This document shows positions 6,705 through 63,718 of a stretch of 64,000 nt of DNA, one piece after another. The stretch comes from Ostrea edulis (taxonomy: Eukaryota), in NCBI RefSeq assembly GCF_947568905.1, contig NC_079165.1, forward strand, positions 83,700,001 through 83,764,000. The letters are read 5' to 3'. The translations under genes were made by a program, and so were the position numbers. Positions within the stretch are counted from its first letter, which is position 1. Each line of letters begins with the position of its first letter. The notes beneath the pieces are model-generated. The model was given only the letters and a program-made list of their open reading frames with translations, searched no databases and was not told the origin of the DNA.

Positions 6705-7530
6705 TTTAATATGATACACAAAACGACATGATACAATTACGATGCTATGGGATTAACATACGGTACAATAGGATGAGCACATGGTACGTTATAATTAGCA
6801 CATGATACGATGGGATTAACACATGATACAATAGGAATAACACACGATACAATAGGACTGATATGATACGAAAAGATTAGCACACGGTACCATAGGATTA
6901 GCACACGATACGATGGGATTAACACACGGTACGATAGAATTAGCACATGATACGATGGGATTAACACATGATACAATAGGAATAACACGCGATACAATAG
7001 GACTAGCATATGATACGATAGAAGTAGCGCATAGTACGACAAGATTTACACACCATACGATAGGATTAGCACACAATGCGACAGAATTAACACACGATAC
7101 GATGGGATTAACACACGATACGATAGAATTAGCACATGGTACGATAAGATTAACACGATATGATAGGCTTAACACGCAATACGATAGGATTAACACACGA
7201 TACAAGAGGATTAACACACGATACGATATCATTAACATATGATACGATAGGATGTAAACACCGTACAATAGAATTAGTACACGATACAATAGGATTGCTA
7301 TGATACAAAAAGATTAGTGCACGGTACGATAGGATTAGCACAGGATATGATAGGATTAGCACAGGATATGATAGGATTAGCACAGGATATGATAGGATTA
7401 GCACACGGTATGATAGGATTAAGATGATATGACAGGATTAGCACACGGAACGATAGGAGTAGCACACGATACAATACCATTACACACGGTACGATAGGAT
7501 GATATGTACAACATACAATACGATAAGATT
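6705..7530. repeat. 21-bp minisatellite (consensus ~ACACGATACGATAGGATTAGC)
   Basis: Repeated 21-mers; produces spurious 7-aa-periodic ORFs. The array differs in length between units (~28455-29400 and ~50525-51595). Confidence 0.9.
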
Positions 7531-14099: not shown

Positions 14100-14462
14100 T
14101 TGAAAATATTATCGCATATCCACGCTTGTCTTGGATATGCGCATTTATCTCCGTAACTGTATCCTCGTCAGTTTTTACTAAAAGGGAAAGGGGGGGGGGA
14201 GAGTTCTTATTTATTCCGGGAAATTTAATTCTGCAATAGTCTAATATATATTGACACGTACACGTCACGTCCTTTCTGGAACATTCTTCCAAACGGCGTG
14301 GTCATCAATTTGGTGCAGCATCAATTCTATCCATATCACTTTAAAATATGCCCAAGACCAAATCAAAAAGGGGGGCACCCAGATCCACGACGTCGGACCA
14401 GTCTCAGCATGCTCAGGCAGTACACACAGGGCAATGCTGACCCCAGCGTAGCACATGGCGGA

Positions 14463-14525
14463 GTCCAGCCACAGATACCTGTCGTCCAGCCACAGATACC
14501 TGTCGTCCAGCCTCAGATACCTGTC
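14463..14525 (+). repeat. 3 x 21-bp coding repeat (VQPQIPV) in the gag N-terminus
   Basis: GTCCAGCC(A/T)CAGATACCTGTC x3. Confidence 0.9.
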
Positions 14526-14690
14526 CTCCATCCCAAAAACCACTTTTAACCCCCACAGCGGGTGCAGCCTGGGGTAGAATTAACGCCAAGTACAGGTAAT
14601 GATATTTTGCACAATGAATTTAATCAGGGCCTACAACCGTTACCTACAATGATCAATTCAAACCAGGCCCCATTGGCATATCATGTTATT

Positions 14691-15703
14691 ATGGAGCGCC
14701 AAATTAACATAAACTCAAATAATTGAAGATATCTTCAATTATTTGAAGATATCATCAATTAAATTATTGCTCACTTTAATTGAATTAATGCGCGCATTAA
14801 ATCAATTATTGCTCTAATCAAATGAATTAATGCGCGCTTCAATTCTATTATTGCTCACATCAATTGAATTAATGCGCGCATCAATTGAATTAATGAGAGC
14901 AATAATTGATTTAATGCGCGCATTAATTCAATTATTGCTCTCTTCAATTCAATTGATGCGCGCATTAATTCAATTAATGAGAGCAATAATAGATTTGATG
15001 CGCGCATTAATTCAATTATTGCTCTCTTCAATGCATTTGATGAGAGCATCAATTTAGTAGAAATATTGCTCGCAATAATTAATTTAGAGCTCGGTTTAAA
15101 TAATTTGATGATCTCTTTAATTCAATTGAAGATATCTTTAAATCATTTACAATGCTTTTGTATAAGGAATTAATGCGCGCATCAATTCTTTTAAAGAGAG
15201 CAACAATTCAATTAAAGATATCATTAATTCAATTGTGGATATGTTGAATTGAAGATATCTTTAATTATATAGTTGCTCTCTCTAAAAGAATTATTGCTCT
15301 CTTCAAATGAATTAAAGATATCATTAATTCAATTGAAGAGAGCAATAATTGAATTAATGCGCGCATCAATTCAATTATTGCTCTCATCAATTGATTTAAT
15401 GCGCGCATTATATCAATTATTGCTCTCTTCAATTGAATTGTAGCGCGCATCAATTCAATTGTTGATATCATTAATTCATTTGAAGAGATCATTAATTCAA
15501 TTGAAGCGCGCATCAATTCAGTTGAAGAATTAATGCTATCATCAATTTAATTAATGCGCGCAGTAATTCAGAATTGAAGATATCATTAATTATTTGAAGA
15601 GATCTTTAATTCAATTGTTGCGCGCATCAAATGAATTAATGATATCTTCAAATAATTGAAGATATCTTCAATTATTTGAGTTTATGTTAATTTGGCGCTC
15701 CAT
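14691..15703. mobile_element. Foldback/MITE element (1013 bp) inserted in gag, copy 1
   Basis: At least 65-bp perfect TIR (ATGGAGCGCCAAATTAACATAAACTCAAATAATTGAAG...); interior of ~21-bp palindromic subrepeats (TTAATGCGCGCATTAA); duplicated flank ATGTTAT (14683-14689 and 15704-15710). Confidence 0.9.
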
Positions 15704-16143
15704 ATGTTATAACCACACTAAACATAAAATAGTCAACGGTGAATTTGTTAATTTAGCCACTTTGCTTGTACGTGACAGCAGTAATTCTCAGATAGCATCT
15801 ATTCTCTCAGTCAACAAATTTGGCCAAATTATTGCATATCCTAAGCAATCAAACAAAATCACTACTATTGAACGCTGGACAGATGCGTTCCTCATATTTA
15901 CTAGCATATATATTGCTGGTCATCCAGAAAAAACACAGCAATTATTAAAGTACGTCCACGACGTTAGACTGGGGGCAGAAAAGTCACAGGGTTGGCCTAA
16001 TTATGACGAGCAGTTTCGCTTGCGCATGGCAACTAATCCGTCTATGGACTGGGGCAGGGTTGATGCAGAGCTTTGGCTCATTTACATGACCCCTTCAAAC
16101 ACCCCATCCCCCCAGCCACCATCAAATCAGTATCTCAAGTGCT

Positions 16144-17974
16144 TTGATTATAATTACAAGGGGTCGTGCCACAAGATTCAGTGTAGATATTTACACCGTT
16201 GCCTTAAGTGTGGCGACAACCATCCGTCAAGTGATTGTGCTAAAACCCAGGCTAAGGCGGGCAAACCAGGGGGACCAAGCAACAATCAGCCCTTTTGGGC
16301 CAATAGCAACCAGTCACAATCCTTTAGCCCAAGCCAAACCAGACAGCAGTCTGGATATATGGGCCCTGGCAAATTCGCCAATAAATACTAGCATAGTTGT
16401 TAGTTATCTCCACACATACCCAGACACTACATCAGCTATTTCTTTTTTTAAAAATGGTCTAATTCGGGGGTTTAGATTGCAGTATTCGGGTCCTCGACTG
16501 CCAATGTTTTGTAGTAATCTTGTATCAGCCACTGAGCACACAGAGGTGTTGCAAGAAAAAATCCATAAAGAGGTGCTTGAAGGACGAATGGCTGGTCCTT
16601 TTGACCACCCCCCATTGCATAATTTACACGTTTCCCCAATAGGTGTCGTTCCGAAGGCAGATGGCGGTTGGCGCATGATCACACATCTTTCTTACCCACC
16701 GTCAAATAGTATAAACCACCATATCGACCCGGTTCACAGATCTGTTAAGTATACCCCATTTGATACTGTAGTCCAAACCATTAGTCTTTTGGGCAAGGGG
16801 ACGTTCATTGCAAAAGTTGATATCAAAAGTGCGTTCAGGTTAATTCGGGTTCATCCAGCTGATTTCGAACTCTTGGGCTTGCATATGAATGGCAGTTTTT
16901 ATATTGATAAGTGTTTACCTTTTGGTTGCGCTATTTCATGCAAAATTTTTGAAATGTTCTCATCATTTTTAGAGTGGTTGGTCATAGCTAAATCAGGGAT
17001 TGAAACGGTTCACCATTACTTGGATGATTTTATTTTTGCAGGCAGTGCGCATACAAGCCATTGTCATGTCCTTATGCATACATTTCAGTCTATGTGTGTC
17101 GAGATGGGAATACCTTTGAACCAGGATAAATCTGTTCAACCCACTACCTGTTTAATATTTCTCGGTCTGGAGATTGATACTATCAAAATGCAAATTAGAA
17201 TACCCCGAGAAAAGGTTGACGAAGTCATGAATCTCCTACTCTTCTGGGTCTCGAAAAATAAAATTAAGTTATCTACCCTTCAGAGCCTGGTGGGCAAGTT
17301 AAATTTTTTTTGGCAAAGCAATACTCGGTAGCAGGGCATTCAACCGTAGATTTTACAACGCCACGATTGGTCCCACTAAGCCATCGCATCATATCAGAAT
17401 CAATCACTCAATGCGTGAAGACATGAATACATGGATAAGTTTTTTGAGGGGATTCAATGGTGTAGTGTATTTCCCAGAGAGGGAGTGGGCCACCCACAAC
17501 ACTTTACAACTGTTCACGGACAGTGCAGGTGGATCTAGTTTAGGTTGCGGGTGTTATTTTCAGGGTCAGTGGACCTACCTTCAATGGCCACATGATTGGA
17601 CCATTACTTCAATCTTGAAAGACATCACATTTTTAGAACTTGTGCCCATTGTGCTAGCCATATCAGTATGGGGCAGTAGGTTGCAAAACAAAAAGATACT
17701 ATTTCATGTGGACAATATGGCCTTAGTACACATTCTTAACAAACAGTCATCTAAGTCACATCGGGTTATGTCGTTTGTTAGGCCACTTATCCTTCAAACA
17801 TTGCACTTCAATATTCAGTTCAAAGCCCAGCATATCCCTGGGAAAACAAATAAAATTGCTGATTCTATATCTCGCAAGCAGTGGGACTTGTTCAGGAACC
17901 TGGCACCTACAGCCGATCACAACCCTCAGCTAATCCCAGCTTCGTTCCAGAGGCTGCTTTGTCAAGTGAAATAA
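16144..17974 (+). pseudogene. pol: Reverse transcriptase / RNase H ORF, split by a +1 frameshift at a T8 run (~17304-17311)
   Basis: VSPIGVVPK, KVDIKSAFR, LPFG, HYLDDF (RT); LFTDSAG, DITFLELVPI, FHVDN, NKIADSISR (RNase H). Removing one T gives the continuous reading KLNFFGKAILGSRAFNRRF...MREDM. Confidence 0.92.
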
Positions 17975-18842
17975 GCCGCCTTTTACACTCATCCTTGTCA
18001 GCAAACACCAACCAAGCATATATGGTGGGTATTCAGGCATTCAACCATTTCCGTAGCATTCAGGGACTACCTAACACATGGCCACCACCGGATGCTCACA
18101 TCAATACATTTATTGCACATTTATCCATACACGGTTACAAGCAATCCACAGCTAAAGCATACATCTCTGCCATTAGTTTTTATTGCAAACTCCACTGGAA
18201 TGCGGATCCGACTAAGCATTTTATAGTGCAGAAATTGTTGCAGGGTATGAAGCGCACAAATTCAATATCGGATGCCCGTTTACCTATCACATTGGGCATT
18301 TTGGAACTAATCATAAATAAACTACAGGTGGTATGCTCTAGCATGTATGAGACCCTTCTTTTTAAAGCATCATTCTCACTAGCTTTTAATGCCTTGCTTA
18401 GGATAGGGGAATTTGCTTTGTCAAAGGGCAATTCTGTGGATCGGGTTTTACATACTGGGGACATTTCCCTGCACACTAACTATTTAACAATTCACATTAG
18501 ATATTCGAAAACTGACCAATTAGGTAGGGCACCACATTGACAGTACATAAGATGACCGGAACTACTTGTCCAATACAGGCCATGCACGATTATATGGAGG
18601 TTAGGGCACCGAAAGCGGGGCCATTATTTTGTCATTACTCTGGTCAGCCTCTTACTCGTTACCAGTTTACCTCAGTTCTGTCACGCTCGCTTAATTTAGC
18701 GGGGATAGACAGTAGGCACTTCAAATCCCACTCGTTTCGCATTGGTGCAGCAACTACACTCGCTCAACAAGGCATGTCAGCCGAAGTTATTCAAGCGGCA
18801 GGTCGATGGAGATCTGTTGCATATCAGTCATATATTCGCTAA
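17881..18842 (+). pseudogene. Tyrosine recombinase, split by a 1-nt deletion near 18526-18540
   Basis: Catalytic motifs LLRIGE, RYSKTDQ, SHSFRIGAAT, AGRWRS and YQSYIR are all present. Adding one G to AGGGC gives DQLGRGTTLTVHK, joining the 17881 and 18537 ORFs. Confidence 0.92.
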
Positions 18843-18857
18843 TCTCTTAACGTTCAT

Positions 18858-19487
18858 ATGCCTTGGGTATTTGCATGCCTAACATTCACCAAGTTCTTCA
18901 TAGGTCCAATTAAAGTGTGGATTGTTGGATCCTCCATTATTAAGAGGGCAGCAGTGGCTGCCAGATCCAGGACAGGGGGACCAAACCTTAACGTTCCAAA
19001 CACGACCATTTGGTGGCAAGGTTACGGGGGTATGAATTTATACGAGTTGGTGCCGAAACTTAAAATATTACAGCAGGTGCAAGATATTCCTGATCTTATC
19101 ATTGTTCATTGTGGGGCAAACAACCTTGGCCGTACCAACCTGTGGTCACTGGTCAGACTTCTTCAGTCTGCTATACTAGAAATAACCAAACGTTTTCCTA
19201 GTGTGAAATTAGTGTGGTCCTCACTGCTACCTAGATTTAGTTGGCGTTATTCTACACAGATACAGGCAATGGAAAACGCCAGAGCAAGAATTAACAGGGA
19301 GGGTATTAGGCTAATAGCTTCAAAGGGTGGGGCGTTCATCAAACACACACAATTTGAAGCTAAGCCCGTTCATCTGTATCATTCTGATGGTGTGCATCTG
19401 TCACAGCTCGGGAATGACTTATTTCTCAATAATCTACAAGGTACCCTTGAAACCTTCATTGGTGGCAGGGTTAATGCGTTTCCTTAG
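18858..19487 (+). CDS. SGNH/GDSL-type hydrolase (209 aa), intact
   Basis: Block I VWIVGSS, block II QGYGG, block III VHCGANN, block V DGVHLS. The true start may be spliced (acceptor at 18903). Confidence 0.85.
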   Translation: MPWVFACLTFTKFFIGPIKVWIVGSSIIKRAAVAARSRTGGPNLNVPNTTIWWQGYGGMNLYELVPKLKILQQVQDIPDLIIVHCGANNLGRTNLWSLVRLLQSAILEITKRFPSVKLVWSSLLPRFSWRYSTQIQAMENARARINREGIRLIASKGGAFIKHTQFEAKPVHLYHSDGVHLSQLGNDLFLNNLQGTLETFIGGRVNAFP

Positions 19488-20362
19488 ACCTGTTTCGATT
19501 TGCGGCAATCTGGTTAGCGGTGACCATTTGAATTGGCGTACTGCCGCCGTCACCACGGTTCTGGGCACTCCCTTTGTGGCGGTTGCAGTCCCACAAACGC
19601 TCCTGTTTCACGGGCGTGTGTGGCACGTGCAAGTGGCGTTTCGGCGCACCCCAACTCAAATGGAGGAGTGCACCCAATATTCTGCAGCTTCATGCCATGA
19701 ACTTGAAAATTTGCAGTATTGATTGATGATTGAATTGATGATTGAATGATGGAATTGTTGACATTGAATTGTCGGACTATTGATTGATTGATTTAATATC
19801 TTAATTCTTGTATTATTGATTGATTTATTGTATTTGCATTTGGTGACGTTGTGCACTTGCGTTTACCCAGTGCGCAATTCGCCCATCTGGGGCCGTCACA
19901 TTTGATTGATTGATTGATTGTTGAGGGGGCGGCTCTGTGGTAGCCCCCAACCATCACCGCGGCCAAGAGCGCCAAAACAAATAAATACCGTTCATTATTA
20001 TAGTGGTTGTACAGTGTTATTTTTGGACAGGAATCGGTGATAAAAAATATATATACTCATGCTCATCATTATACATACATGTAATCACCTTGTACCTTAT
20101 TGGAGAAGGCTTATATAGGCTGCAAGCCTGCTGCCTAATCCATTTATGCTTCATACATATTATTTGCATTACAAAATAACAAAAAAGAATATTGTTATTA
20201 AAGGTGGGGGAAAGACACTCTTGTCCCCTCCCCTTGATTCTATGTGTTTGATAACGACGCATAATATGATAAACTCGATTATTACATTTGCATTAGTACA
20301 ATTTGCATCGAGTTCAACGCAGAATGTAATAACGCAAAATGGCATAGATATATATAAGATCT

Positions 20363-28160: not shown

Positions 28161-31100
28161 GGATTATTGAGATTGATCAGTCTGCGCTATTTTGACTTGT
28201 TCATACTTGTACTTTATGATTTAAAGCTTGATGTTCTACCTAAACATCGCATAACTGGCCTTAAAATGTTTTTCGATGTAATAATAAAAATCCGTGTATG
28301 ACCGACAAGCAGTGTATTTGAAATGAATACTTACTTGTCTTCGCCGTGTCATCTGAAGGTGGAGACTGTGCAGAATGCACTCTGAAATGTTGATTTAAAC
28401 AATGTGTTAAAACGAATCATTTAATACATTCCATTTCGATACTCTGCACTTTTAATATGATACACCAAACGACATGATACAATTACGATACGATGGGATT
28501 AACATACGGTACAATAGGATGAGCACATAGTACGTTATAATTAGCACATGATACGATGGGATTAACACATGATACAATAGGAATAACACACGATACAATA
28601 GGATCAGCATATGATACGATAGAAGTAGCACATAGTACGATAAGATTAACACACCATACGATAGGATTAGCACACAATGCGACAGAATTAATACACGATA
28701 CGATGGGATTAACACACGATACGATAGAATTAACACATGGTACGATAAGATTAATACACCATGCGATAGGATTAGCACACAATGCGATAGAATTAATACA
28801 CGATACGATGGGATTAACACACGATACGATAGAATTAGCACATGGTACGATAAGATTAACACAATATGATAGGCTTAACACGCAATACGATAGGATTAAC
28901 ACACGATACAAGAGGATTAACACACGATACGATATCATTAACATATGATACGATAGGATGTAAACACCGTACAATAGAATTAGTACACGATACAATAGGA
29001 TTGATATGATACAAAAAGATTAGTGCACGGTACCATAGGATTAGCACATGATATGATAGGATTAGCACATGATATGATAGGATTAGCACACGATATGATG
29101 GGATTAGCACACGGTACGATAGGATTAAGATGATATGACAGGATTAGCACACGGAACGATAGGAGTAGCACACGATACGATAGGATTAGCACACGATATG
29201 ATAGGATTAAAACGATACAATAGGATTAACATGATATAATAAGATTAGCAGACGATACGATAGGATTAGCACACGATACAATAGAATTAGCTCAAGATAC
29301 AATAGGATTTACACACGGTACGATAGGATTCGCACACGATACAATACCATTACACACGGTCCGATAGGATGATATGTACAACATACAATACGATAAGATT
29401 GCAAAGATTCGATAGGACCAAAAAAAAATGCAAAAGTATAACACTGCGCCGCATACTTTTAGAGCTTCTTTATACACCGGGTAAAACACTCCAGAAAATA
29501 AGTGTTATATGTAAAACGTTGAGATGGTTTCATCTTTTGATGTTTGATAATGTTCATACTGAAATTGGAGTGATTCAGGTCACACTTTTAATAATCCTTG
29601 GGTGTTTTAGTGTCATTAACGCAAGTTGTATCATTGTTCAAATCCTGGGGTAGTGTTCTACTTTTAGGATTTTCTGTAAAGGTAAATTCGTGATCTATTT
29701 ATAACAGCTGTGTAATGACGTCATACAGAAGCACATATTTGTCATGTTGTCATGATACAAAGTACTACTATGTAAACACCTAGTATAGTTTTAAAAAATT
29801 AGTGTAGGGCAGATTCTAAAGATTGTTCAATTTACGTGCATAAATGGAGTATGGCCTACCCTAGCACACCCGCGAAGAGGGAAAATATTACTGTTCAGTT
29901 CTACTTTACTTGATTACTTTTATTCATTGTGCTTCTTTGTTATCCGACCTGTTTTTATATTCTGATGAAGCGGAATTTATTCAAAAACTTTTACGCGGGA
30001 AGAAAAAAATCTCTTGCTGTGGCCTTCAATTCCACATTTATATATATCGACGATATTTCATCTATTAACAATAATAATTTTCGTTCATTGCTTTAACATA
30101 CCCGCGAAGAAAGAAAAAGAATTATTGCTTCAATAAAAATAAGATACTGTGATTCTATTTTAAATTTTTTGAGTTTTACTCATCTATTTTTCACAATACA
30201 TCCATGATTGTATTGTTGATTGATTGTATATTGTTTAACGTCCCTCTCGAGAATTCACTCATATGAAGACGCAACCATTGCCGGTAAATGGCTGCAAACT
30301 TTAGGCTTATGAGATATAATAGGGCTCACGGCGGTTGTGACCGGTCGACAAGGGATGCTTACTCCTCCTAGGCACCTGATCCCACCTCTGGTGTGTCCAG
30401 GGGTCCGTATTTGCCCAACTATCTATTTTGTATTGCATATGGGATTTTTTTTAGATTGATCACTAGTCGCTATCTTCACCTTTCATACATAAGAATCGGT
30501 GCTCTTAGTTTGTAAACTCAGCCTGGTGGTAATTGTTTATGCAAAAAGGATTTTAAAAATGAATGTTGCAAATAAACACAAAATTTATACAAATACGCCT
30601 GATGAAGAGGAATTGTTTGGCCTGATTCTATCTGATTCTTAAGTGCGTGTGCAAAAGTCTCAACTTTCAAACAAATTTCAATATATAAAACATTACCGAT
30701 TTTCACGACTCTGTTGAGATTTCATATGAGTTTCCGGGCGTTGTTTCCCCTCGGTTTTGGGGTCCTTGTTTCTCACAGAATGGGTCTTCATTCTAGAATA
30801 ACTGGATTAAGAACACGAAAACAATTTTACAATATTGGATTTTTAATCAGTGATAGAAATATTGAACTATTGTAATTTTACGTATTATCCTCTGGTGTGT
30901 CCAGGGGTCCGTGTTTCCTCAACTATCTATTTTGTATTGCTGATAGGAATTATGAGATTGATCACCTTGCATTCAAATATTCTTTTGGAAAAATTAATGA
31001 ACTTTCCTTCCGGCTTGGGATCTATATTAATACCCATATTCAATGGAACAAAATCATACAAACTGGAAAGTATGCATACTTCTGAAACAGTATATTTACA

Positions 31101-36348: not shown

Positions 36349-38458
36349 ATGCCCAAGACCAAATCAAAAAGGGGGGCACCCAGATCCACGACGTCGGACC
36401 AGTCTCAACATGCTCAGGCAGTACAGACAGGGCGTAATCGCAGGACACGGAGAAGCAATGCTGACCCCAGCGTAGCACATGGCGGAGTCCAGCCACAGAT
36501 ACCTGTCGTCCAGCCACAGATACCTGTCGTCCAGCCTCAGATACCTGTCCTCCATCCCAAAAACCACTTTTAACCCCCACAGCGGGTGCAGCCTGGGGTA
36601 GAATTAACGCCAAGTACAGGTAATGATATTTTGCACAATGAATTTAATCAGGGCCTACAACCGTTACCTACAATGATCAATTCAAACCAGGCCCCATTGG
36701 CATATCATGTTATTATGGAGCGCCAAATTAACATAAACTCAAATAATTGAAGATATCTTCAATTATTTGAAGATATCATCAATTAAATTATTGCTCACTT
36801 TAATTGAATTAATGCGCGCATTAAATCAATTATTGCTCTAATCAAATGAATTAATGCGCGCTTCAATTCTATTATTGCTCACATCAATTGAATTAATGCG
36901 CGCATCAATTGAATTAATGAGAGCAATAATTGATTTAATGCGCGCATTAATTCAATTATTGCTCTCTTCAATTCAATTGATGCGCGCATTAATTCAATTA
37001 ATGAGAGCAATAATAGATTTGATGCGCGCATTAATTCAATTATTGCTCTCTTCAATGCATTTGATGAGAGCATCAATTTAGTAGAAATATTGCTCGCAAT
37101 AATTAATTTAGAGCTCGGTTTAAATAATTTGATGATCTCTTTAATTCAATTGAAGATATCTTTAAATCATTTACAATGCTTTTGTATAAGGAATTAATGC
37201 GCGCATCAATTCTTTTAAAGAGAGCAACAATTCAATTAAAGATATCATTAATTCAATTGTGGATATGTTGAATTGAAGATATCTTTAATTATATAGTTGC
37301 TCTCTCTAAAAGAATTATTGCTCTCTTCAAATGAATTAAAGATATCATTAATTCAATTGAAGAGAGCAATAATTGAATTAATGCGCGCATTAAATCAATT
37401 ATTGCTCTCATCAAATGAATTAATGCGCGCATCAATTCAATTATTGCTCTCATCAATTGATTTAATGCGCGCATTATATCAATTATTGCTCTCTTCAATT
37501 GAATTGTAGCGCGCATCAATTCAATTGTTGATATCATTAATTCATTTGAAGAGATCATTAATTCGATTGAAGCGCGCATCAATTCAGTTGAAGAATTAAT
37601 GCTATCATCAATTTAATTAATGCGCGCAGTAATTCAGAATTGAAGATATCATTAATTATTTGAAGAGATCTTTAATTCAATTGTTGCGCGCATCAAATGA
37701 ATTAATGATATCTTCAAATAATTGAAGATATCTTCAATTATTTGAGTTTATGTTAATTTGGCGCTCCATATGTTATAACCACACTAAACATAAAATAGTC
37801 AACGGTGAATTTGTTAATTTAGCCACTTTGCTTGTACGTGACAGCAGTAATTCTCAGATAACATCTATTCTCTCAGTCAACAAATTTGGCCAAATTATTG
37901 CATATCCTAAGCAATCAAACAAAATCACTACTATTGAACGCTGGACAGATGCGTTCCTCAAATTTACTAGCATATATATTGCTGCTCATCCAGAAAAAAA
38001 CACAGCAATTATTAAAGTACGTCCACGACGTTAGACTGGGGGCAGAAAAGTCACAGGGTTGGCCTAATTATGACGAGCAGTTTCGCTTGCGCATGGCAAC
38101 TAATCCGTCTATGGACTGGGGCAGGGTTGATGCAGAGCTTTGGCTCATTTACATGACCCCTTCAAACACCCCATCCCCCCAGCCACCATCAAATCAGTAT
38201 CTCAAGTGCTTTGATTATAATTACAAGGGGTCGTGCCACAAGATTCAGTGTAGATATTTACACCGTTGCCTTAAGTGTGGCGACAACCATCCGTCAAGTG
38301 ATTGTGCTAAAACCCAGGCTAAGGCGGGCAAACCAGGGGGACCAAGCAACAATCAGCCCTTTTGGGCCAATAGCAACCAGTCACAATCCTTTAGCCCAAG
38401 CCAAACCAGACAGCAGTCTGGATATATGGGCCCTGGCAAATTCGCCAATAAATACTAG
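36349..38458 (+). pseudogene. gag: Gag-like ORF1, copy 2 (TAA at 36571, foldback insertion, extra A in an A-run near 37994-38000)
   Basis: ORF-track pieces 36349-36573, 37750-38034 and 37886-38458. Confidence 0.85.
36715..37769. mobile_element. Foldback element, copy 2 (1055 bp)
   Basis: Same TIR and flanks; +42 bp of subrepeats relative to copy 1. Confidence 0.9.
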
Positions 38459-40042
38459 CATAGTTGTTAGTTATCTCCACACATACCCAGACACTACATC
38501 AGCTATTTCTTTAAAAAAAAAATGGTCTAATTCGGGGGTTTAGATTGCAGTATTCGGGTCCTCGACTGCCAATGTTTTGTAGTAATCTTGTATCAGCCAC
38601 TGAGCACACAGAGGTGTTGCAAGAAAAAATCCATAAAGAGGTGCTTGAAGGGCGAATGGCTGGTCCTTTTGACCACCCCCCATTGCATGATTTACACGTT
38701 TCCCCAATAGGTGTCGTTCCGAAGGCAGATGGCGGTTGGCGCATGATCACACATCTTTCTTACCCACCGTCAAATAGTATAAACCACCATATCGACCCGG
38801 TTCACAGATCTGTTAAGTATACCTCATTTGATACTGTAGTCCAAACCATTAGTCTTCTGGGCAAGGGGACGTTCATTGCAAAAGTTGATATCAAAAGTGC
38901 GTTCAGGTTAATTCGGGTTCATCCAGCTGATTTCGAACTCTTGGGCTTGCATATGAATGGCAGTTTTTATATTGATGAGTGTTTACCTTTTGGTTGCGCT
39001 ATTTCATGCAAAAGTTTTGAAATGTTCTCATCATTTTTAGAGTGGTTGGTCATAGCTAAATCAGGGATTGAAACGGTTCACCATTACTTGGATGATTTTA
39101 TTTTTGCAGGCAGTGCGCATACAAGCCATTGTCATGTCCTTATGCATACATTTCAGTCTACGTGTGTCGAGATGGGAATACCTTTGAACCAGGATAAATC
39201 TGTTCAACCCACTACCTGTTTAATATTTCTCGGTCTGGAGATTGATACTATCAAAATGCAAATTAGAATACCCCGAGAAAAGGTTGACGAAGTCATGAAT
39301 CTCCTACTCTTCTGGGTCTCGAAAAATAAAATTAAGTTATCTACCCTTCAGAGCCTGGTGGGCAAGTTAAATTTTTTTTGGCAAAGCAATACTCGGTAGC
39401 AGGGCATTCAACCGTAGATTTTACAACGCCACGATTGGTCCCACTAAGCCATCGCATCATATCAGAATCAATCACTCAATGCGTGAAGACATGAATACAT
39501 GGATAAGTTTTTTGAGGGGATTCAATGGTGTAGTGTATTTCCCAGAGAGGGAGTGGGCCACCCACAACACTTTACAACTGTTCACGGACTGTGCAGGTGG
39601 ATCTAGTTTAGGTTGCGGGTGTTATTTTCAGGGTCAGTGGACCTACCTTCAATGGCCACATGATTGGACCATTACTTCAATCTTGAAAGACATCACATTT
39701 TTAGAACTTGTGCCCATTGTACTAGCCATATCAGTATGGGGCAGTAGGTTGCAAAACAAAAAGATACTATTTCATGTGGACAATATGGCCTTAGTACACA
39801 TTCTTAACAAACAGTCATCTAAGTCACATCGGGTTATGTCGTTTGTTAGGCCACTTATCCTTCAAACATTGCACTTCAATATTCAGTTCAAAGCCCAGCA
39901 TATCCCTGGGAAAACAAATAAAATTGCTGATTCTATATCTCGCAAGCAGTGGGACTTGTTCAGGAACCTGGCACCTACAGCCGATCACAACCCTCAGCTA
40001 ATCCCAGCTTCGTTCCAGAGGCTGCTTTGTCAAGTGAAATAA
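38211..40042 (+). pseudogene. pol: RT/RNase H, copy 2 (two frameshifts)
   Basis: Breaks at the T3A10 tract (~38510-38522) and at the T8 run (~39372-39379); YLDD retained. Confidence 0.9.
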
Positions 40043-40892
40043 GCCGCCTTTTACACTCATCCTTGTCAGCAAACACCAACCAAGCATATATGGTGGGTAT
40101 TCAGGCATTCAACCATTTCCGTAGCATTCAGGGACTACCTAACACATGGCCACCACCGGATGCTCACATCAATACATTTATTGCACATTTATCCATACAC
40201 GGTTACAAGCAATCCACAGCTAAAGCATACATTTCTGCCATTAGTTTTTATTGCAAACTCCACTGGAATGCGGATCCGACTAAGCATTTTATAGTGCAGA
40301 AATTGTTGCAGGGTATGAAGCGCACAAATTCAATATCGGATGCCCGTTTACCTATCACATTGGGCATTTTGGAACTAATCATAAATAAACTACAGGTGGT
40401 ATGCTCCAGCATGTATGAGACCCTTCTTTTTAAAGCATCATTCTCACTAGCTTTTAATGCCTTGCTTAGGATAGGGGAATTTGCTTTGTCAAAGGGCAAT
40501 TCTGTGGATCGGGTTTTACATACTGGGGACTATTTAACAATTCACATTAGATATTCGAAAACTGACCAATTAGGTAGGGCACCACATTGACAGTACATAA
40601 GATGACCGGAACTACTTGTCCAATACAGGCCATGCACGATTATATGGAGGTTAGGGCACCGAAAGCGGGGCCATTATTTTGTCATTACTCTGGTCAGCCT
40701 CTTACTCGTTACCAGTTTACCTCAGTTTTGTCACGCTCGCTTAATTTAGCGGGGATAGACAGTAGGCACTTCAAATCCCACTCGTTTCGCATTGGTGCAG
40801 CAACTACACTCGCTCAACAAGGCATGTCAGCCGAAGTTATTCAAGCGGCAGGTCGATGGAGATCTGTTGCATATCAGTCATATATTCGCTAA
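39949..40892 (+). pseudogene. Tyrosine recombinase, copy 2 (shared frameshift plus 18-bp in-frame deletion of ISLHTN)
   Basis: The first ORF piece is 213 aa versus 219 aa in the other copies; same catalytic motifs. Confidence 0.9.
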
Positions 40893-40907
40893 TCTCTTAA
40901 CGTTCAT

Positions 40908-41537
40908 ATGCCTTGGGTATTTGCATGCCTAACATTCACCAAGTTCTTCATAGGTCCAATTAAAGTGTGGATTGTTGGATCCTCCATTATTAAGAGGGCA
41001 GCAGTGGCTGCCAGATCCAGGACAGGGGGACCAAACCTTAACGTTCCAAACACGACCATTTGGTGGCAAGGTTACGGGGGTATGAATTTATACGAGTTGG
41101 TGCCGAAACTTAAAATATTACAGCAGGTGCAAGATATTCCTGATCTTATCATTGTTCATTGTGGGGCAAACAACCTTGGCCGTACCAACCTGTGGTCACT
41201 GGTCAGACTTCTTCAGTCTGCTATACTAGAAATAACCAAACGTTTTCCTAGTGTGAAATTAGTGTGGTCCTCACTGCTACCTAGATTTAGTTGGCGTTAT
41301 TCTACACAGATACAGGCAATGGAAAACGCCAGAGCAAGAATTAACAGGGAGGGTATTAGGCTAATAGCTTCAAAGGGTGGGGCGTTCATCAAACACACAC
41401 AATTTGAAGCTAAGCCCGTTCATCTGTATCATTCTGATGGTGTGCATCTGTCACAGCTCGGGAATGACTTATTTCTCAATAATCTACAAGGTACCCTTGA
41501 AACCTTCATTGGTGGCAGGGTTAATGCGTTTCCTTAG
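40908..41537 (+). CDS. SGNH hydrolase, copy 2, intact
   Basis: 209 aa, identical in translation to copy 1. Confidence 0.85.
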   Translation: MPWVFACLTFTKFFIGPIKVWIVGSSIIKRAAVAARSRTGGPNLNVPNTTIWWQGYGGMNLYELVPKLKILQQVQDIPDLIIVHCGANNLGRTNLWSLVRLLQSAILEITKRFPSVKLVWSSLLPRFSWRYSTQIQAMENARARINREGIRLIASKGGAFIKHTQFEAKPVHLYHSDGVHLSQLGNDLFLNNLQGTLETFIGGRVNAFP

Positions 41538-50230: not shown

Positions 50231-53200
50231 GGATTACTGAGATTGATCAGTCTGTGCTATTTTGACTTGTTCATACTTGTACTTTATGATTTAAAGCTTG
50301 ATGTTATACCTAAACATCGCATAACTGGCCTTAAACTGTTTTCCGATGTAATAATAAAAATCCGTGTATGACCGACAAGCAGTGTATTTGAAATGAATAC
50401 TTACTTGTCTTCGCCGTGTCATCTGAAGGTGGAGACTGTGCAGAATGCACTCTGAAATGTTGATTTAAACAATGTGTTAAAACGTACCATTTAATACATT
50501 CCATTTCGATACTCTGTATTTTTAATATGATACACAAAACGACATGATACAATTACGATGCTATGGGATTAACATACGGTACAATAGGATGAGCACACGG
50601 TACGTTATAATTAGCACATGATACGATGGGATTAACACATGATACAATAGGAATAACACACGATACAATAGGACTGATATGATACGAAAAGATTAGCACA
50701 CGGTACCATAGGATTAGCACACGATACGATGGGATTAACACACGGTACGATAGAATTAGCACACGATACGATGGGATTAACACATGATACAATAGGAATA
50801 ACACGCGATACAGTAGGATTAGCATATGATACGATAGAAGTAGCACACAGTACGATAAGATTAACACACCATACGATAGGATTAGCACACAATGCGACAG
50901 AATTAATACACGATACGATGGGATTAACACACGATACGATAGAATTAACACATGGTACGATAAGATTAATACACCATACGATAGGATTAGCACACAATAC
51001 GATAGAATTAATACACGATACGATGGGATTAACACACGATACGATAGAATTAGCACATGGTACGATAAGATTAACACAATATGATAGGCTTAACACGCAA
51101 TACGATAGGATTAACACACGATACAAGAGGATTAACACACGATACGATATCATTAACATATGATACGATAGGATGTAAACACCGCACAATAGAATTAGTA
51201 CACGATACAATAGGATTGATATGATACAAAAAGATTAGTGCACGGTACCATAGGATTAGCACATGATATGATAGGATTAGCACAGGATATGATAGGATTA
51301 GCACACGGTACGATAGGATTAAGATGATATGACAGGATTAGCACACGGAACGATAGGAGTAGCACTCGATACGATAGGATTAGCACACGATATGATAGGA
51401 TTAAAACGATACAATAGGATTAACATGATATAATAAGATTAGCAGACGATACGATAGGATTAGCACACGATACAATAGAATTAGCTCAAGATACAATAGG
51501 ATTTACACACGGTACGATAGGATTCGCACACGATACAATACCATTACACACGGTACGATAGGATGATATGTACAACATACAATACGATAAGATTGCAAAG
51601 ATTCGATAGGACAAAAAAATGCAAAAGTATAACACTGCGCCGCATACTTTTAGAGCCTCTTTATACACCGGGTAAAACACTCCAGAAAATAAGTGTTATA
51701 TGTAAAACATTGAGATGGTTTCATCTTTTGATGTTTGATAATGTTCATACTGAAATTGGAGTGATTCAGGTCACACTTTTAATAATCCTTGGGTGTTTTA
51801 GTGTCATTAACGCAAGTTGTATCATTGTTCAAATCCTGGGGTAGTGTTCTACTTTTAGGATTTTCTGTAAAGGTAAATTCGTGATCTATTTATAACAGCT
51901 GTGTAATGACGTCATACAGAAGCACATATTTGTCATGTTGTCATGATACAAAGTACTACTATGTAAACACCTAGTATAGTTTTAAAAAATTAGTGTAGGG
52001 CAGATTCTAAAGATTGTTCAATTTACGTGCATAAATGGAGTATGGCCTACCCTAGCACACCCGCGAAGAGGGAAAATATTACTGTTCAGTGCTACTTTAC
52101 TTGATTACTTTTATTCATTGTGCTTCTTTGTTATCCGACCTGTTTTTATATTCTGATGAAGCGGAATTTATTCAAAAACTTTTACGCGGGAAGATAAAAA
52201 TCTCTTGCTGTGGCCTTCAATTCCACATTTATATATATCGACGATATTTCATCTATTAACAATAATAATTTTCGTTCATTGCTTTAACATACCCGCGAAG
52301 AAAGAAAAAGAATTATTGCTTCAATAAAAATAAGATACTGTGATTCTATTTTAAATTTTTTGAGTTTTACTCATCTATTTTTCACAATACATCCATGATT
52401 GTATTGTTGATTGATTGTATATTGTTTAACGTCCCTCTCGAGAATTCACTCATATGAAGACACAACCATTGCCGGTAAATGGCTGCAAACTTTAGGCTTA
52501 TGAGATATGATAGGGCTCACGGGGGTTGTGACCGGTCGACAAGGGATGCTTTCTCCTCCTAGGCACCTGATCCCACCTCTGGTGTGTCCAGGGGTCCGTA
52601 TTTGCCCAACTATCTATTTTGTATTGCATATGGGATTTTTTTTTAGATTGATCACTAGTCGCTATCTTCACCTTTCATACATACGAATCGGTGCTCTTAG
52701 TTTGTAAACTCAGCCTTGTGGTAATTGTTTATGCAAAAAGGATTTTAAAAATGAATGTTGCAAATAAACACAAAATTTATAGAAATACGCCTGATAAAGA
52801 GGGACTGTTTGGCCTGATTCTACCTGATTCTTAAGTGCGTGTGCAAAAGTCTCAACTTTCAAACAAATTTCAATATATAAAACATTACCGATTTTCACGA
52901 CTCTGTTGAGATTTCATATGAGTTTCCGGGCGTTGTTTCTCCTCAGTTTTGGGGTCCTTGTTTCTCACAGAATGGGTATTCATTCTAGAATAACTGGATT
53001 AAGAACACGAAAACAATTTTACAATATTGGATTTTTAATCAGTGATAGAAATATTGAACTATTGTAATTTTACGTATTATTCCAATATGTTTTTCGAATG
53101 AGAATCGGATGCTTACTCCTCCTAGGTACCTGATCCCACCTCTGGTGTGTCCAGGGGTCCGTGTTTGCCCAACTATCTATTTTGTATTGCTGATAGGAAT

Positions 53201-58598: not shown

Positions 58599-60623
58599 AT
58601 GCCCAAGACCAAATCAAAAAGGGGGGCACCCAGATCCACGACGTCGGACCAGTCTCAGCATGCTCAGGCAGTACAGACAGGGCGTAATCGCAGGACACGG
58701 AGGAGCAATGCTGACCCCAGCGTAGCACATGGCGGAGTCCAGCCACAGATACCTGTCGTCCAGCCTCAGATACCTGTCGTCCAGCCTCAGATACCTGTCC
58801 TCCATCCCAAAAACCACTTTTAATCCCCACAGCGGGTGCAGCCTGGGGTAGAATTAACGCCAAGTACAGGTAATGATATTTTGCACAATGAATTTAATCA
58901 GGGCCTACAACCGTTACCTACAATGATCAATTCAAACCAGGCCCCATTGGCATATCATGTTATTATGGAGCGCCAAATTAACATAAACTCAAATAATTGA
59001 AGATATCTTCAATTATTTGAAGATATCATCAATTAAATTATTGCTCTCTTTAATTGAATTAATGCGCGTATTAAATCAATTATTGCTCTAATCAAATGAA
59101 TTAATGCGCGCTTCAATTCTATTATTGCTCACATCAATTGAATTAATGCTCGCATCAATTGAATTAATGAGAGCAATAATTGATTTAATGCGCGCATTAA
59201 TTCAATTATTGCTCTCTTCAATGCATTTGATGAGAGCATCAATTTAGTAGAAATATTGCTCGCAATAATTAATTTAGAGCTCGGTTTAAATAATTTGATG
59301 ATCTCTTTAATTCAATTGAAGATATCTTTAAATCATTTACAATGCTTTTGTATAAGGAATTAATGCGCACATCAATTCTTTTAAAGAGAGCAACAATTCA
59401 ATTAAAGAGATCATTAATTCAATTGTGGATATGTTGAATTGAAGATATCTTTAATTATATAGTTGCTCTCTCTAAAAGAATTATTGCTCTCTTCAAATGA
59501 ATTAAAGATATCATTAATTCAATTGAAGAGAGCAATAATTGAATTAATGCGCGCATTAAATCAATTATTGCTCTCATCAAATGAATTAATGCGCGCATCA
59601 ATTCAATTATTGCTCTCATCAATTGATTTAATGCGCGCATTATATCAATTATTGCTCTCTTCAATTGAATTGTAGCACGCATCAATTCAATTGTTGATAT
59701 CATTAATTCATTTGAAGAGATCATTAATTCAATTGAAGCGCGCATCAATTCAGTTGAAGAATTAATGCTATCATCAATTTAATTAATGCGCGCAGTAATT
59801 CAGAATTGAAGATATCATTAATTATTTGAAGAGATCTTTAATTCAATTGTTGCGTGCATCAAATGAATTAATGATATCTTCAAATAATTGAAGATATCTT
59901 CAATTATTTGAGTTTATGTTAATTTGGCGCTCCATATGTTATAACCACACTAAACATAAAATAGTCAACGGTGAATTTGTTAATTTAGCCACGTTGCTTG
60001 TACGTGACAGCAGTAATTCTCAGATAGCATCTATTCTCTCAGTCAACAAATTTGGCCAAATTATTGCATATCCTAAGCAATCAAACAAAATCACTACTAT
60101 TGAACGCTGGACAGATGCGTTCCTCATATTTACTAGCATATATATTGCTGCTCATCCAGAAAAAACACAGCAATTATTAAAGTACGTCCACGACGTTAGA
60201 CTGGGGGCAGAAAAGTCACAGGGTTGGCCTAATTATGACGAGCAGTTTCGCTTGCGCATGGCAACTAATCCGTCTATGGACTGGGGCAGGGTTGATGCAG
60301 AGCTTTGGCTCATTTACATGACCCCTTCAAACACCCCATCCCCCCAACCACCATCAAATCAGTATCTCAAGTGCTTTGATTATAATTACAAGGGGTCGTG
60401 CCACAAGATTCAGTGTAGATATTTACACCGTTGCCTTAAGTGTGGCGACAACCATCCGTCAAGTGATTGTGCTAAAACCCAGGCTAAGGCGGGCAAACCA
60501 GGGGGACCAAGCAACAATCAGCCCTTTTGGGCCAATAGCAACCAGTCACAATCCTTTAGCCCAAGCCAAACCAGACAGCAATCTGGATATATGGGCCCTG
60601 GCAAATTCGCCAATAAATACTAG
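58599..60623 (+). pseudogene. gag: Gag-like ORF1, copy 3 (TAA at 58821, foldback insertion)
   Basis: ORF pieces 58599-58823 and 59916-60623. Confidence 0.85.
58965..59935. mobile_element. Foldback element, copy 3 (971 bp)
   Basis: Same TIR and flanks; net -42 bp relative to copy 1. Confidence 0.9.
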
Positions 60624-62205
60624 CATAGTTGTTAGTTATCTCCACACATACCCAGACACTACATCAGCTATTTCTTTTTAAAAAATGGTCTAATTCGGGG
60701 GTTTAGATTGCAGTATTCGGGTCCTCGACTGCCAATGTTTTGTAGTAATCTTGTATCAGCCACTGAGCACACAGAGGTGTTGCAAGAAAAAATCCATAAA
60801 GAGGTGCTTGAAGGACGAATGGCTGGTCCTTTTGACCACCCCCCATTGCATAATTTACACGTTTCCCCAATAGGTGTCGTTCCGAAGGCAGATGGCGGTT
60901 GGCGCATGATCACACATCTTTCTTACCCACCGTCAAATAGTATAAACCACCATATCGACCCGGTTCACAGATCTGTTAAGTATACCTCATTTGATACTGT
61001 AGTCCAAACCATTAGTCTTCTGGGCAAGGGGACGTTCATTGCAAAAGTTGATATCAAAAGTGCGTTCAGGTTAATTCGGGTTCATCCAGCTGATTTCGAA
61101 CTCTTGGGCTTGCATATGAATGGCAGTTTTTATATTGATAAGTGTTTACCTTTTGGTTGCGCTATTTCATGCAAAATTTTTGAAATGTTCTCATCATTTT
61201 TAGAGTGGTTGGTCATAGCTAAATCAGGGATTGAAACGGTTCACCATTACTTGGATGATTTTATTTTTGCAGGCAGTGCGCATACAAGCCATTGTCATGT
61301 CCTTATGCATACATTTCAGTCTATGTGTGTCGAGATGGGAATACCTTTGAACCAGGATAAATCTGTTCAACCCACTACCTGTTTAATATTTCTCGGTCTG
61401 GAGATTGATACTATCAAAATGCAAATTAGAATACCCCGAGAAAAGGTTGACGAAGTCATGAATCTCCTACTCTTCTGGGTCTCGAAAAATAAAATTAAGT
61501 TATCTACCCTTCAGAGCCTGGTGGGCAAGTTAAATTTTTTTTGGCAAAGCAATACTCGGTAGCAGGGCATTCAACCGTAGATTTTACAACGCCACGATTG
61601 GTCCCACTAAGCCATCGCATCATATCAGAATCAATCACTCAATGCGTGAAGACATGAATACATGGATAAGTTTTTTGAGGGGATTCAATGGTGTAGTGTA
61701 TTTCCCAGAGAGGGAGTGGGCCACCCACAACACTTTACAACTGTTCACGGACAGTGCAGGTGGATCTAGTTTAGGTTGCGGGTGTTATTTTCAGGGTCAG
61801 TGGACCTACCTTCAATGGCCACATGATTGGACCATTACTTCAATCTTGAAAGACATCACATTTTTAGAACTTGTGCCCATTGTGCTAGCCATATCAGTAT
61901 GGGGCAGTAGGTTGCAAAACAAAAAGATACTATTTCATGTGGACAATATGGCCTTAGTACACATTCTTAACAAACAGTCATCTAAGTCACATCGGGTTAT
62001 GTCGTTTGTTAGGCCACTTATCCTTCAAACATTGCACTTCAATATTCAGTTCAAAGCCCAGCATATCCCTGGGAAAACAAATAAAATTGCTGATTCTATA
62101 TCTCGCAAGCAGTGGGACTTGTTCAGGAACCTAGCACCTACAGCCGATCACAACCCTCAGCTAATCCCAGCTTCGTTCCAGAGGCTGCTTTGTCAAGTGA
62201 AATAA
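60376..62205 (+). pseudogene. pol: RT/RNase H, copy 3 (two frameshifts)
   Basis: Breaks at the T5A6 tract (~60675-60685) and at the T8 run (~61535-61542). Confidence 0.9.
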
Positions 62206-63073
62206 GCCGCCTTTTACACTCATCCTTGTCAGCAAACACCAACCAAGCATATATGGTGGGTATTCAGGCATTCAACCATTTCCGTAGCATTCAGGGACTA
62301 CCTAACACAAGCCCACCACTGGATGCTCACATCAATACATTTATTGCACATTTATCCATACACGGTTACAAGCAATCCACAGCTAAAGCATACATCTCTG
62401 CCATTAGTTTTTATTGCAAACTCCACTGGAATGCGGATCCGACTAAGCATTTTATAGTGCAGAAATTGTTGCAGGGTATGAAGCGCACAAATTCAATATC
62501 GGATGCCCGTTTACCTATCACATTGGGCATTTTGGAACTAATCATAAATAAACTACAGGTGGTATGCTCTAGCATGTATGAGACCCTTCTTTTTAAAGCA
62601 TCATTCTCACTAGCTTTTAATGCCTTGCTTAGGATAGGGGAATTTGCTTTGTCAAAGGGCAATTCTGTGGATCGGGTTTTACATACTGGGGACATTTCCC
62701 TGCACACTAACTATTTAACAATTCACATTAGATATTCGAAAACTGACCAATTAGGTAGGGCACCACATTGACAGTACATAAGATGACCGGAACTACTTGT
62801 CCAATACAGGCCATGCACGATTATATGGAGGTTAGGGCACCGAAAGCGGGGCCATTATTTTGTCATTACTCTGGTCAGCCTCTTACTCGTTACCAGTTTA
62901 CCTCAGTTTTGTCACGCTCGCTTAATTTAGCGGGGATAGACAGTAGGCACTTCAAATCCCACTCGTTTCGCATTGGTGCAGCAACTACACTCGCTCAACA
63001 AGGCATGTCAGCCGAAGTTATTCAAGCGGCAGGTCGATGGAGATCTGTTGCATATCAGTCATATATTCGCTAA
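62112..63073 (+). pseudogene. Tyrosine recombinase, copy 3 (shared frameshift)
   Basis: ORFs 62112-62771 and 62768-63073. Confidence 0.9.
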
Positions 63074-63088
63074 TCTCTTAACGTTCAT

Positions 63089-63718
63089 ATGCCTTGGGTA
63101 TTTGCATGCCTAACATTCACCAAGTTCTTCATAGGTCCAATTAAAGTGTGGATTGTTGGATCCTCCATTATTAAGAGGGCAGCAGTGGCTGCCAGATCCA
63201 GGACAGGGGGACCAAACCTTAACGTTCCAAACACGACCATTTGGTGGCAAGGTTACGGGGGTATGAATTTATACGAGTTGGTGCCGAAACTTAAAATATT
63301 ACAGCAGGTGCAAGATATTCCTGATCTTATCATTGTTCATTGTGGGGCAAACAACCTTGGCCGTACCAACCTGTGGTCACTGGTCAGACTTCTTCAGTCT
63401 GCTATACTAGAAATAACCAAACGTTTTCCTAGTGTGAAATTAGTGTGGTCTTCACTGCTACCTAGATTTAGTTGGCATTATTCTACACAGATACAGGCAA
63501 TGGAAAACGCCAGAGCAAGAATTAACAGGGAGGGTATTAGGCTAATAGCTTCAAAGGGTGGGGCGTTCATCAAACACACACAATTTGAAGCTAAGCCCGT
63601 TCATCTGTATCATTCTGATGGTGTGCATCTGTCACAGCTCGGGAATGACTTATTTCTCAATAATCTACAAGGTACCCTTGAAACCTTCATTGGTGGCAGG
63701 GTTAATGCGTTTCCTTAG
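63089..63718 (+). CDS. SGNH hydrolase, copy 3, intact (one R>H change)
   Basis: 209 aa; SWRYS becomes SWHYS; catalytic blocks unchanged. Confidence 0.85.
   Translation: MPWVFACLTFTKFFIGPIKVWIVGSSIIKRAAVAARSRTGGPNLNVPNTTIWWQGYGGMNLYELVPKLKILQQVQDIPDLIIVHCGANNLGRTNLWSLVRLLQSAILEITKRFPSVKLVWSSLLPRFSWHYSTQIQAMENARARINREGIRLIASKGGAFIKHTQFEAKPVHLYHSDGVHLSQLGNDLFLNNLQGTLETFIGGRVNAFP

Follow-up and report, generated by a model that had tools for sequence, protein, structure and literature searches.

Probable splicing of a Gag-arm leader to the SGNH hydrolase of an Ngaro-like retrotransposon

The window analyzed here, a stretch of 64,000 nucleotides (nt) of Ostrea edulis DNA (NC_079165.1, positions 83,700,001 to 83,764,000, forward strand), carries a retrotransposon with an SGNH hydrolase frame at its 3' end, and the question it raises is how this frame is expressed. 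By its domain order and split direct repeats, the element is an SGNH-bearing Ngaro-like retrotransposon. An original prediction held that phase-matched splice sites fuse the N-terminal arm of Gag directly to the hydrolase; comparative analysis supported this interpretation for the clade and made it likely for the family to which the window belongs. We consider it very probable that splicing from the gag arm (14595) to the SGNH acceptor (18903) yields the RNA from which this family makes its hydrolase, with the same donor likely serving acceptors for Pol and the tyrosine recombinase (YR). The following features are central to this reading:

14348..14595, + strand: gag N-terminal arm, the predicted shared leader exon; basic, rich in Pro, Gln, Ser and Thr, no hydrophobic stretch; broken in copy 1 by a 23-nt deletion and a TAA
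14593..14601, + strand: putative 5' splice donor CAG/GTAATG, cut after 14595, phase 1
18879..18903, + strand: predicted branch point CTAAC (18879-18883) and 3' acceptor TAG ending at 18903 for SGNH, phase 1
18904..19487, + strand: SGNH hydrolase exon (PF13472, E 1e-7); G-S-S, G, G-A-N-N and D-G-V-H blocks intact
36617..40953, + strand: the same donor-to-acceptor segment in duplicate copy 2
58867..63134, + strand: the same donor-to-acceptor segment in duplicate copy 3

The donor was confirmed in the sequence, with its cut after the first base of a gag-frame Gly codon, and at the acceptor the G of the TAG is the first codon base of the SGNH frame (18843-19487). The CTAAC and the phase-1 TAG were also present as predicted, while the tract between them, described as pyrimidine-rich, is only modestly so. 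Donor/acceptor pairs do recur at 14595/18903, 36619/40953 and 58869/63134, enclosing 4308, 4334 and 4265 nt, respectively, but not as separate occurrences. Indeed, the entire window (1-64000) consists of at least three tandem copies of a ~22-kb unit; this unit includes a minisatellite array (6740-7520, 28485-29390 and 50555-51590), and the three element copies are 96-98% identical, flanks included. They were therefore counted once, and their use as independent replication was rejected. Within the window alone, the splice motifs are not above chance, whereas the comparison with sister families exceeds it: a donor, a branch point, a T-rich tract, a YAG acceptor and a conserved phase were found, as in a spliceosomal GT-AG intron.

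Searches of the host genome returned about 1000 SGNH candidates each, 150 of which were scored each time. A total of 186 SGNH-centered loci were examined; 33 of these had no recognizable G-S-S anchor and were dropped, leaving 153 loci in 35 families at 80% nucleotide identity. A phase-1 YAG was found 18-30 nt upstream of the Gly of G-S-S in 31/35 families, a count that shows conservation and not independent trials, as the families share ancestry. The 18-30 nt interval was fixed after viewing the first 18 families, whose protein is 34-65% identical to that of the window and all of which have the phase-1 YAG (18/18; phase 0 in none, phase 2 in two). The later, held-out sets are the fair test, and the site was present in 11/14 and 2/3 of their families (13/17). 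As a control in the first set, the interval was slid upstream or into SGNH, where it averaged 1.2-2.6 families, with a maximum of 6 upstream and 11 inside SGNH. Among the four misses, two families have a phase-1 YAG at 17 nt, a third is diluted by two length variants and an intron-less member, and the fourth consists of one copy that has lost the AG. Acceptors have T at positions -5 and -6 in 15/18 families, and a branch-like YTRAY lies at -35 to -16 in 16/30 families versus 3.6 expected. The residues upstream of the acceptor are unconserved, with frequent stops, and a usable in-frame ATG ahead of the first SGNH strand was found in only 5/32 families, including that of the window. The conservation check proposed with the original prediction, namely whether SGNH-bearing homologs keep the acceptor and its phase or have instead a conserved ATG start, was thus decided in favor of the acceptor.

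The hydrolase might nevertheless be translated from its own ATG, at 18859 in the window, through an internally started RNA, reinitiation, or stop-codon readthrough from YR; the motifs resembling splice sites would then be incidental. What speaks for this, and against splicing, is that the young subfamily including the window has this in-frame ATG, with YR in frame with SGNH across one TAA. An in-frame ATG is present in 13/22 copies of the window's family, in which, as in two other families, only one stop separates YR from SGNH within a shared frame. However, no such ATG is present in 9/22 copies, stops and frame changes precede the acceptor in most families and in 9/22 copies of the window's family, and the ATG is rare across families, as stated above. 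With the exact intron-less copies described below, this makes such a route very unlikely, and at most a side route in the young subfamily. A universal YR-SGNH readthrough was rejected, as the frames differ between families.

Genomic copies lacking the predicted intron were found at two loci, L193 and L194, from which the gag core, the reverse transcriptase (RT) and YR are absent. Compared with its full-length sister L213 (99.6-100% identical), L193 is missing exactly one GT..AG segment, of 3191 nt; L194, compared with its full-length sister L210 (97%), is also missing exactly one, of 3345 nt. The gap extends from a phase-1 donor, 70 and 81 codons past the gag Met, respectively, to the conserved SGNH acceptor. 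In both copies, leader and hydrolase share one frame and the terminal A1 and B1 ends of the element are retained; both have later frameshifts in SGNH. We infer that both copies derive from spliced RNAs, which the enzymes of the element itself would have copied and inserted. When the 186 loci were compared all against all, 69 distinct length differences >300 nt emerged, of which 7 were GT..AG-compatible versus 1.0 expected. L193 and L194 account for two of the seven, two more resemble insertions in the reference copy, one is a segment of a 5' leader, and the remaining two, L205 and L243, start from a gag-arm donor. The four intron-less copies (L193, L194, L205 and L243) belong to four sister families and all use a phase-1 donor in the gag arm. 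Eleven of the 186 loci are without YR, two of them being the exact splices L193 and L194. Several other candidates were rejected as spliced copies: the deletions of L118, L125, L208 and L217 lie off the sites, and L120, L203, L270, L302 and L309 represent insertions, truncations or loci with no relative.

Such copies could also arise from DNA deletions or from RT template switches at short microhomologies. Internal deletions are indeed common, 62/69 of the length differences not being GT..AG, and all four intron-less junctions share a microhomology of 1-3 nt, which counts against splicing. However, two families break exactly at the conserved SGNH acceptor and four at the homologous donor, all in phase 1, while other deletions from the 5' end to SGNH (L118, L125, L208) miss the sites. 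Given in addition the sevenfold count of GT..AG events relative to expectation, we regard a deletion or template-switch origin as extremely unlikely. Other points have to be set against splicing as well. L193 and L194 were found among 16 loci chosen for unusual open-frame length, a selected sample; the window's own family gave no intron-less copy (27/27 scored 5' matches; 40/44 scored SGNH matches); and none was present among the matches listed for the L054, L092, L108 and L095 families. No intron-less copy was found in the L101 family either, and a third round of 36 loci yielded no additional SGNH-spliced copy. Contigs of uncertain kind with patchy cover (X11, X12, X10 and X7 on L031; X11, X12, X1 and X3 on L101) had no joint at the predicted sites and are evidence neither way.

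Which donor the window's family uses was addressed by homology, since this family yielded no spliced copy or RNA junction. The site at 14595 is the top-scoring GT before the foldback insertion that interrupts gag in the window (8.0 versus 3.6, scored on copy 2) and the only GT above 4 before the gag core. It is intact in all 12 family copies in which it was located (10/22 not located). It lies 37 codons before the gag core motif, the best phase-1 sites of other families lying at 23-69, and occupies the same position relative to the gag core as the donors used in L193, L194, L205 and L243. It also resembles the donor of L145, from the family of L243, with the same S-T-G-N context. The mean of the best phase-1 scores within the gag arm is 7.27 over 13 families, compared with 4.14 +/- 0.96 in 500 synonymous shuffles, none of which reached 7.27. 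Two results argue in the opposite direction: donor phase alone is not significant (10/13 families; 90/500 shuffles reach it), and the donor actually used in L193 scores only 3.0, outside the top three of its family, so that the score picks donors unreliably.

The weak score of the L193 donor leaves room for an alternative in which the acceptor at 18903 is real and the donor of this family differs, being located in the 5' untranslated region, at another gag site, or at a GTAAGT just upstream in older copies, which would give another product. A perfect GTAAGT lies 38 nt before the SGNH acceptor in the older family copies L041-L043, L046 and L047; the young subfamily is without it and has gained an in-frame ATG nearby. 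An intron of 38 nt would be very short for an animal. In another family, a 411-nt segment (L300:4156-4567) with G/GTGAGT and AG ends is gone from the 5' leader of L296 and L315, just before an ATG, and is likely a further intron in that family. Nevertheless, all four intron-less copies use a gag-arm phase-1 donor, and the uniqueness of the window site before the gag core and its likeness to the L145/L243 donor point the same way. We therefore consider a different donor improbable, and use by the window's family of its own donor at 14595 would, on these comparisons, be the expected case with good confidence.

The original prediction proposed a single Gag-SGNH splice, which appears to be an under-call, as a homologous donor also feeds acceptors located before Pol and the recombinase. 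The window features concerned are the following:

16090..17974, + strand: RT/RNase H frames with one frameshift near 17303 and no Met ahead of the conserved start (PF00078, E 2e-15; PF13456 weak)
16184..16186, + strand: candidate Pol acceptor TAG, located at the C-R-Y codons of the gag zinc knuckle and in phase 1 relative to the Pol frame; homologous to the L205 acceptor and the best-scoring YAG in the open Pol frame of the family
17863..18842, + strand: YR (PF02899, PF00589) with one frameshift near 18530
17879..17881, + strand: candidate YR acceptor CAG, located at the S-R-x-Q motif of RNase H and in phase 1 relative to the YR frame; homologous to the L243 acceptor

Compared with L240, locus L205 (G000:C1:39609345-39617288) is without a GT..AG segment, and its gag-arm donor is joined to an AG at the gag zinc knuckle, which gives the leader and the beginning of Pol a common frame. 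Compared with L207, locus L243 (G000:C3:49114037-49122040) is likewise without a GT..AG segment; here, the gag-arm donor is joined to the CAG in the S-R-x-Q motif of RNase H, at which the YR frame starts. Among 26 families, this YR site reads CAG in 23, AAG in one and CAA in two (AG in 24/26), while elsewhere in Pol CAG represents 113/284 Gln codons. Both CAA families have an ATG as first YR codon in place of the acceptor, and the YR frame is open for ~320 codons from the site in most families. It should be noted that YR sites, including the one used in L243, score poorly with an acceptor matrix derived from SGNH sites, which was therefore not used as evidence at YR. A GTG start for YR beside splicing is possible. 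Extending the splice to Pol and YR meets several difficulties: each of the two splices rests on one genomic copy, the L243/L207 pair is degraded and its frame is not cleanly followed, and the place of the Pol acceptor is not fixed, the best YAG being in phase 1 in 13/21 families and an upstream Met being present in 11/21. The AGR codon for the knuckle Arg is also only mildly enriched (9/12 versus 92/170 elsewhere).

We propose that the RNA, when left unspliced, would be both the genome and the message for Gag, and that alternative 3' splice sites would fuse the same gag-arm leader to Pol, YR and SGNH. That one donor with three acceptors is the normal route seems to us reasonably likely. Seven predicted leaders are 70-94 residues long, with 9-12 Lys/Arg within the first 35 residues and a maximum 15-residue hydropathy <0.9; as they have no hydrophobic stretch, they are not signal peptides. 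This common leader of 70-95 residues, basic and probably disordered, might bind RNA or direct each enzyme to the particle, and membrane lipids might be substrates or binding partners of the esterase, judging from the esterase of the LINE ZfL2-1, whose ORF1p structure (4C1B, E 0.0046) was the sole PDB match of the hydrolase. Both functions are tentative, and we hold them to be slightly less probable than not. For Ngaro elements more broadly, the balance leans somewhat toward RT/RNase H, YR and the SGNH esterase being expressed through one Gag-arm exon and three phase-matched acceptors, the shared basic Gag tag loading each onto RNA or the particle. If true, this would explain how overlapping, ATG-less open reading frames (ORFs) are translated without frameshifting, and spliced messages would themselves be mobilized in trans. 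The one-donor, three-acceptor scheme would also give exact protein N-termini and RT-PCR targets, and the starts annotated by ORF finders in these elements would be wrong. Splicing would then have given a recombinase retrotransposon the combination of basic peptide and esterase that some LINE ORF1 proteins have.

The env gene of retroviruses is a 3' ORF expressed by a subgenomic splice. The SGNH ORF resembles env in this mode of expression without being one: neither of the hallmarks of an env-like gene, a signal peptide or a transmembrane segment, was found, the leaders having no hydrophobic stretch and the SGNH exon being a hydrolase by Pfam. In foamy viruses, Pol has its own spliced mRNA with its own start and no Gag leader, and there are no recombinase or hydrolase acceptors. 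Expression of Pol by splicing and not by frameshift is thus similar, whereas the Gag leader on Pol and the recombinase and hydrolase acceptors distinguish the elements studied here from foamy viruses.

Hydrolase-bearing Ngaro elements have been described in Xenopus (DIRS-53_XT and DIRS-54_XT), with the hydrolase as an extra overlapping ORF of unproven function (bioRxiv 10.1101/2021.08.05.455354). Our element is like them in its order of gag-like ORF, RT/RNase H, YR and SGNH, in its split direct repeats and in having no methyltransferase. The available part of that account makes no mention of splicing, whereas here splice sites and intron-less copies provide an expression route for SGNH and likely for Pol and YR. 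In the portions of the literature that were accessible, the elements have overlapping ORFs and a hydrolase to which no known function is assigned, and splicing is not described (bioRxiv 10.1101/2021.08.05.455354, PMC7192593, PMC6681497, PMC5633606), and no report of natural splicing of DIRS-order elements was found in the literature, including the accessible text of PMC7192593, PMC6681497, PMC8547959 and PMC5633606. In long terminal repeat (LTR) elements, spliced ORF3 messages are typical, and some have a GDSL ORF3, such as the rotifer Vesta, according to the excerpted source (PMC5408684). As in LTR ORF3/env and Vesta, the 3' ORF here would be reached by a subgenomic splice, with an SGNH domain as 3' cargo. 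Unlike in these elements as excerpted, the order is that of a YR and not an integrase element, the leader is a Gag arm without signal or membrane segment, and Pol and the integrating enzyme are apparently spliced too. The ZfL2-1 ORF1p esterase binds anionic lipids, and an arginine-rich motif before it is thought to bind RNA, as stated in the part of the report at hand (PMC3905857). A basic, arginine-rich peptide ahead of the SGNH domain is common to both; ZfL2-1, as there described, has one ORF with a coiled coil, whereas the architecture of the Ngaro element would be assembled by splicing.

All three copies in the window are dead for the Gag-leader-SGNH product. A TAA (14547-14549) sits upstream of the donor in the gag arm and, as originally stated, blocks translation from the gag ATG; copy 1 is additionally broken by the 23-nt deletion, and translation of its leader stops after 30 codons. 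No Met lies between the TAA and the donor, and in the SGNH exon the catalytic serine precedes the first Met, so that these copies cannot make the fusion protein. The gag frame is further interrupted by an insertion:

14690..15704, strand not assigned: AT-rich foldback insertion bounded by terminal inverted repeats, with palindromes inside and a target duplication of 6 nt; not seen outside the window copies

The foldback element is also present at ~36714-37770 and ~58964-59936; it entered gag before the duplication, and its length varies between copies. This insertion and both frameshifts do lie between the splice sites and would be removed with the intron, but this is incidental. None of the other family copies compared has the insertion, the TAA or the YR frameshift, and the homopolymer lengthening in RT was also seen in 1/5. 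Other family copies are without the insertion and have an open gag frame (open in L031-L033, L036 and L039). A 21-nt tandem repeat in the gag leader (14465-14535 in the window) differs in copy number among family members, shifting leader length in frame.

The terminal repeats of copy 1 complete the layout of the element:

14106..14347, + strand: A1 terminal repeat, copy 1; matching the A repeat of L038, another copy of the family, at 96%
19636..20043, + strand: B1 terminal repeat; no A2-B2 after it in the window copies

Family copy L038 has complete split direct repeats (A1...B1-A2-B2), while the window copies keep only A1 and B1. In Pfam scans, the domains follow the order RT, RNase H-like, YR and SGNH, with the hydrolase (PF13472/PF00657) after YR; no methyltransferase family was detected in the window frames or in the intact Pol of L100. 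The gag-like ORF has no Pfam match and ends with a Cys/His knuckle. The catalytic S, G, N and H blocks of the SGNH translation are present (G-S-S, G-Y-G-G, G-A-N-N and D-G-V-H), and blocks III and V align to 4C1B. Copies running from A1 to B1 only, with no A2-B2, are many (14106-20043 in the window, L031-L037, L193 and L194). In contigs of runs X12, X10 and X7, the B1 end is joined to an A start, as expected of B1-A2 or of a circle. The L100/L101 family (e.g., G000:C2:32675236) is a young sister family, 13 copies of which are 100% identical over the SGNH region. Finally, RT-less deletion derivatives in which gag arm, YR end and SGNH are retained (L200, L202, L229, L247, L296, L300 and L315) were found in several families, some at several loci, and their recurrence suggests mobilization in trans.

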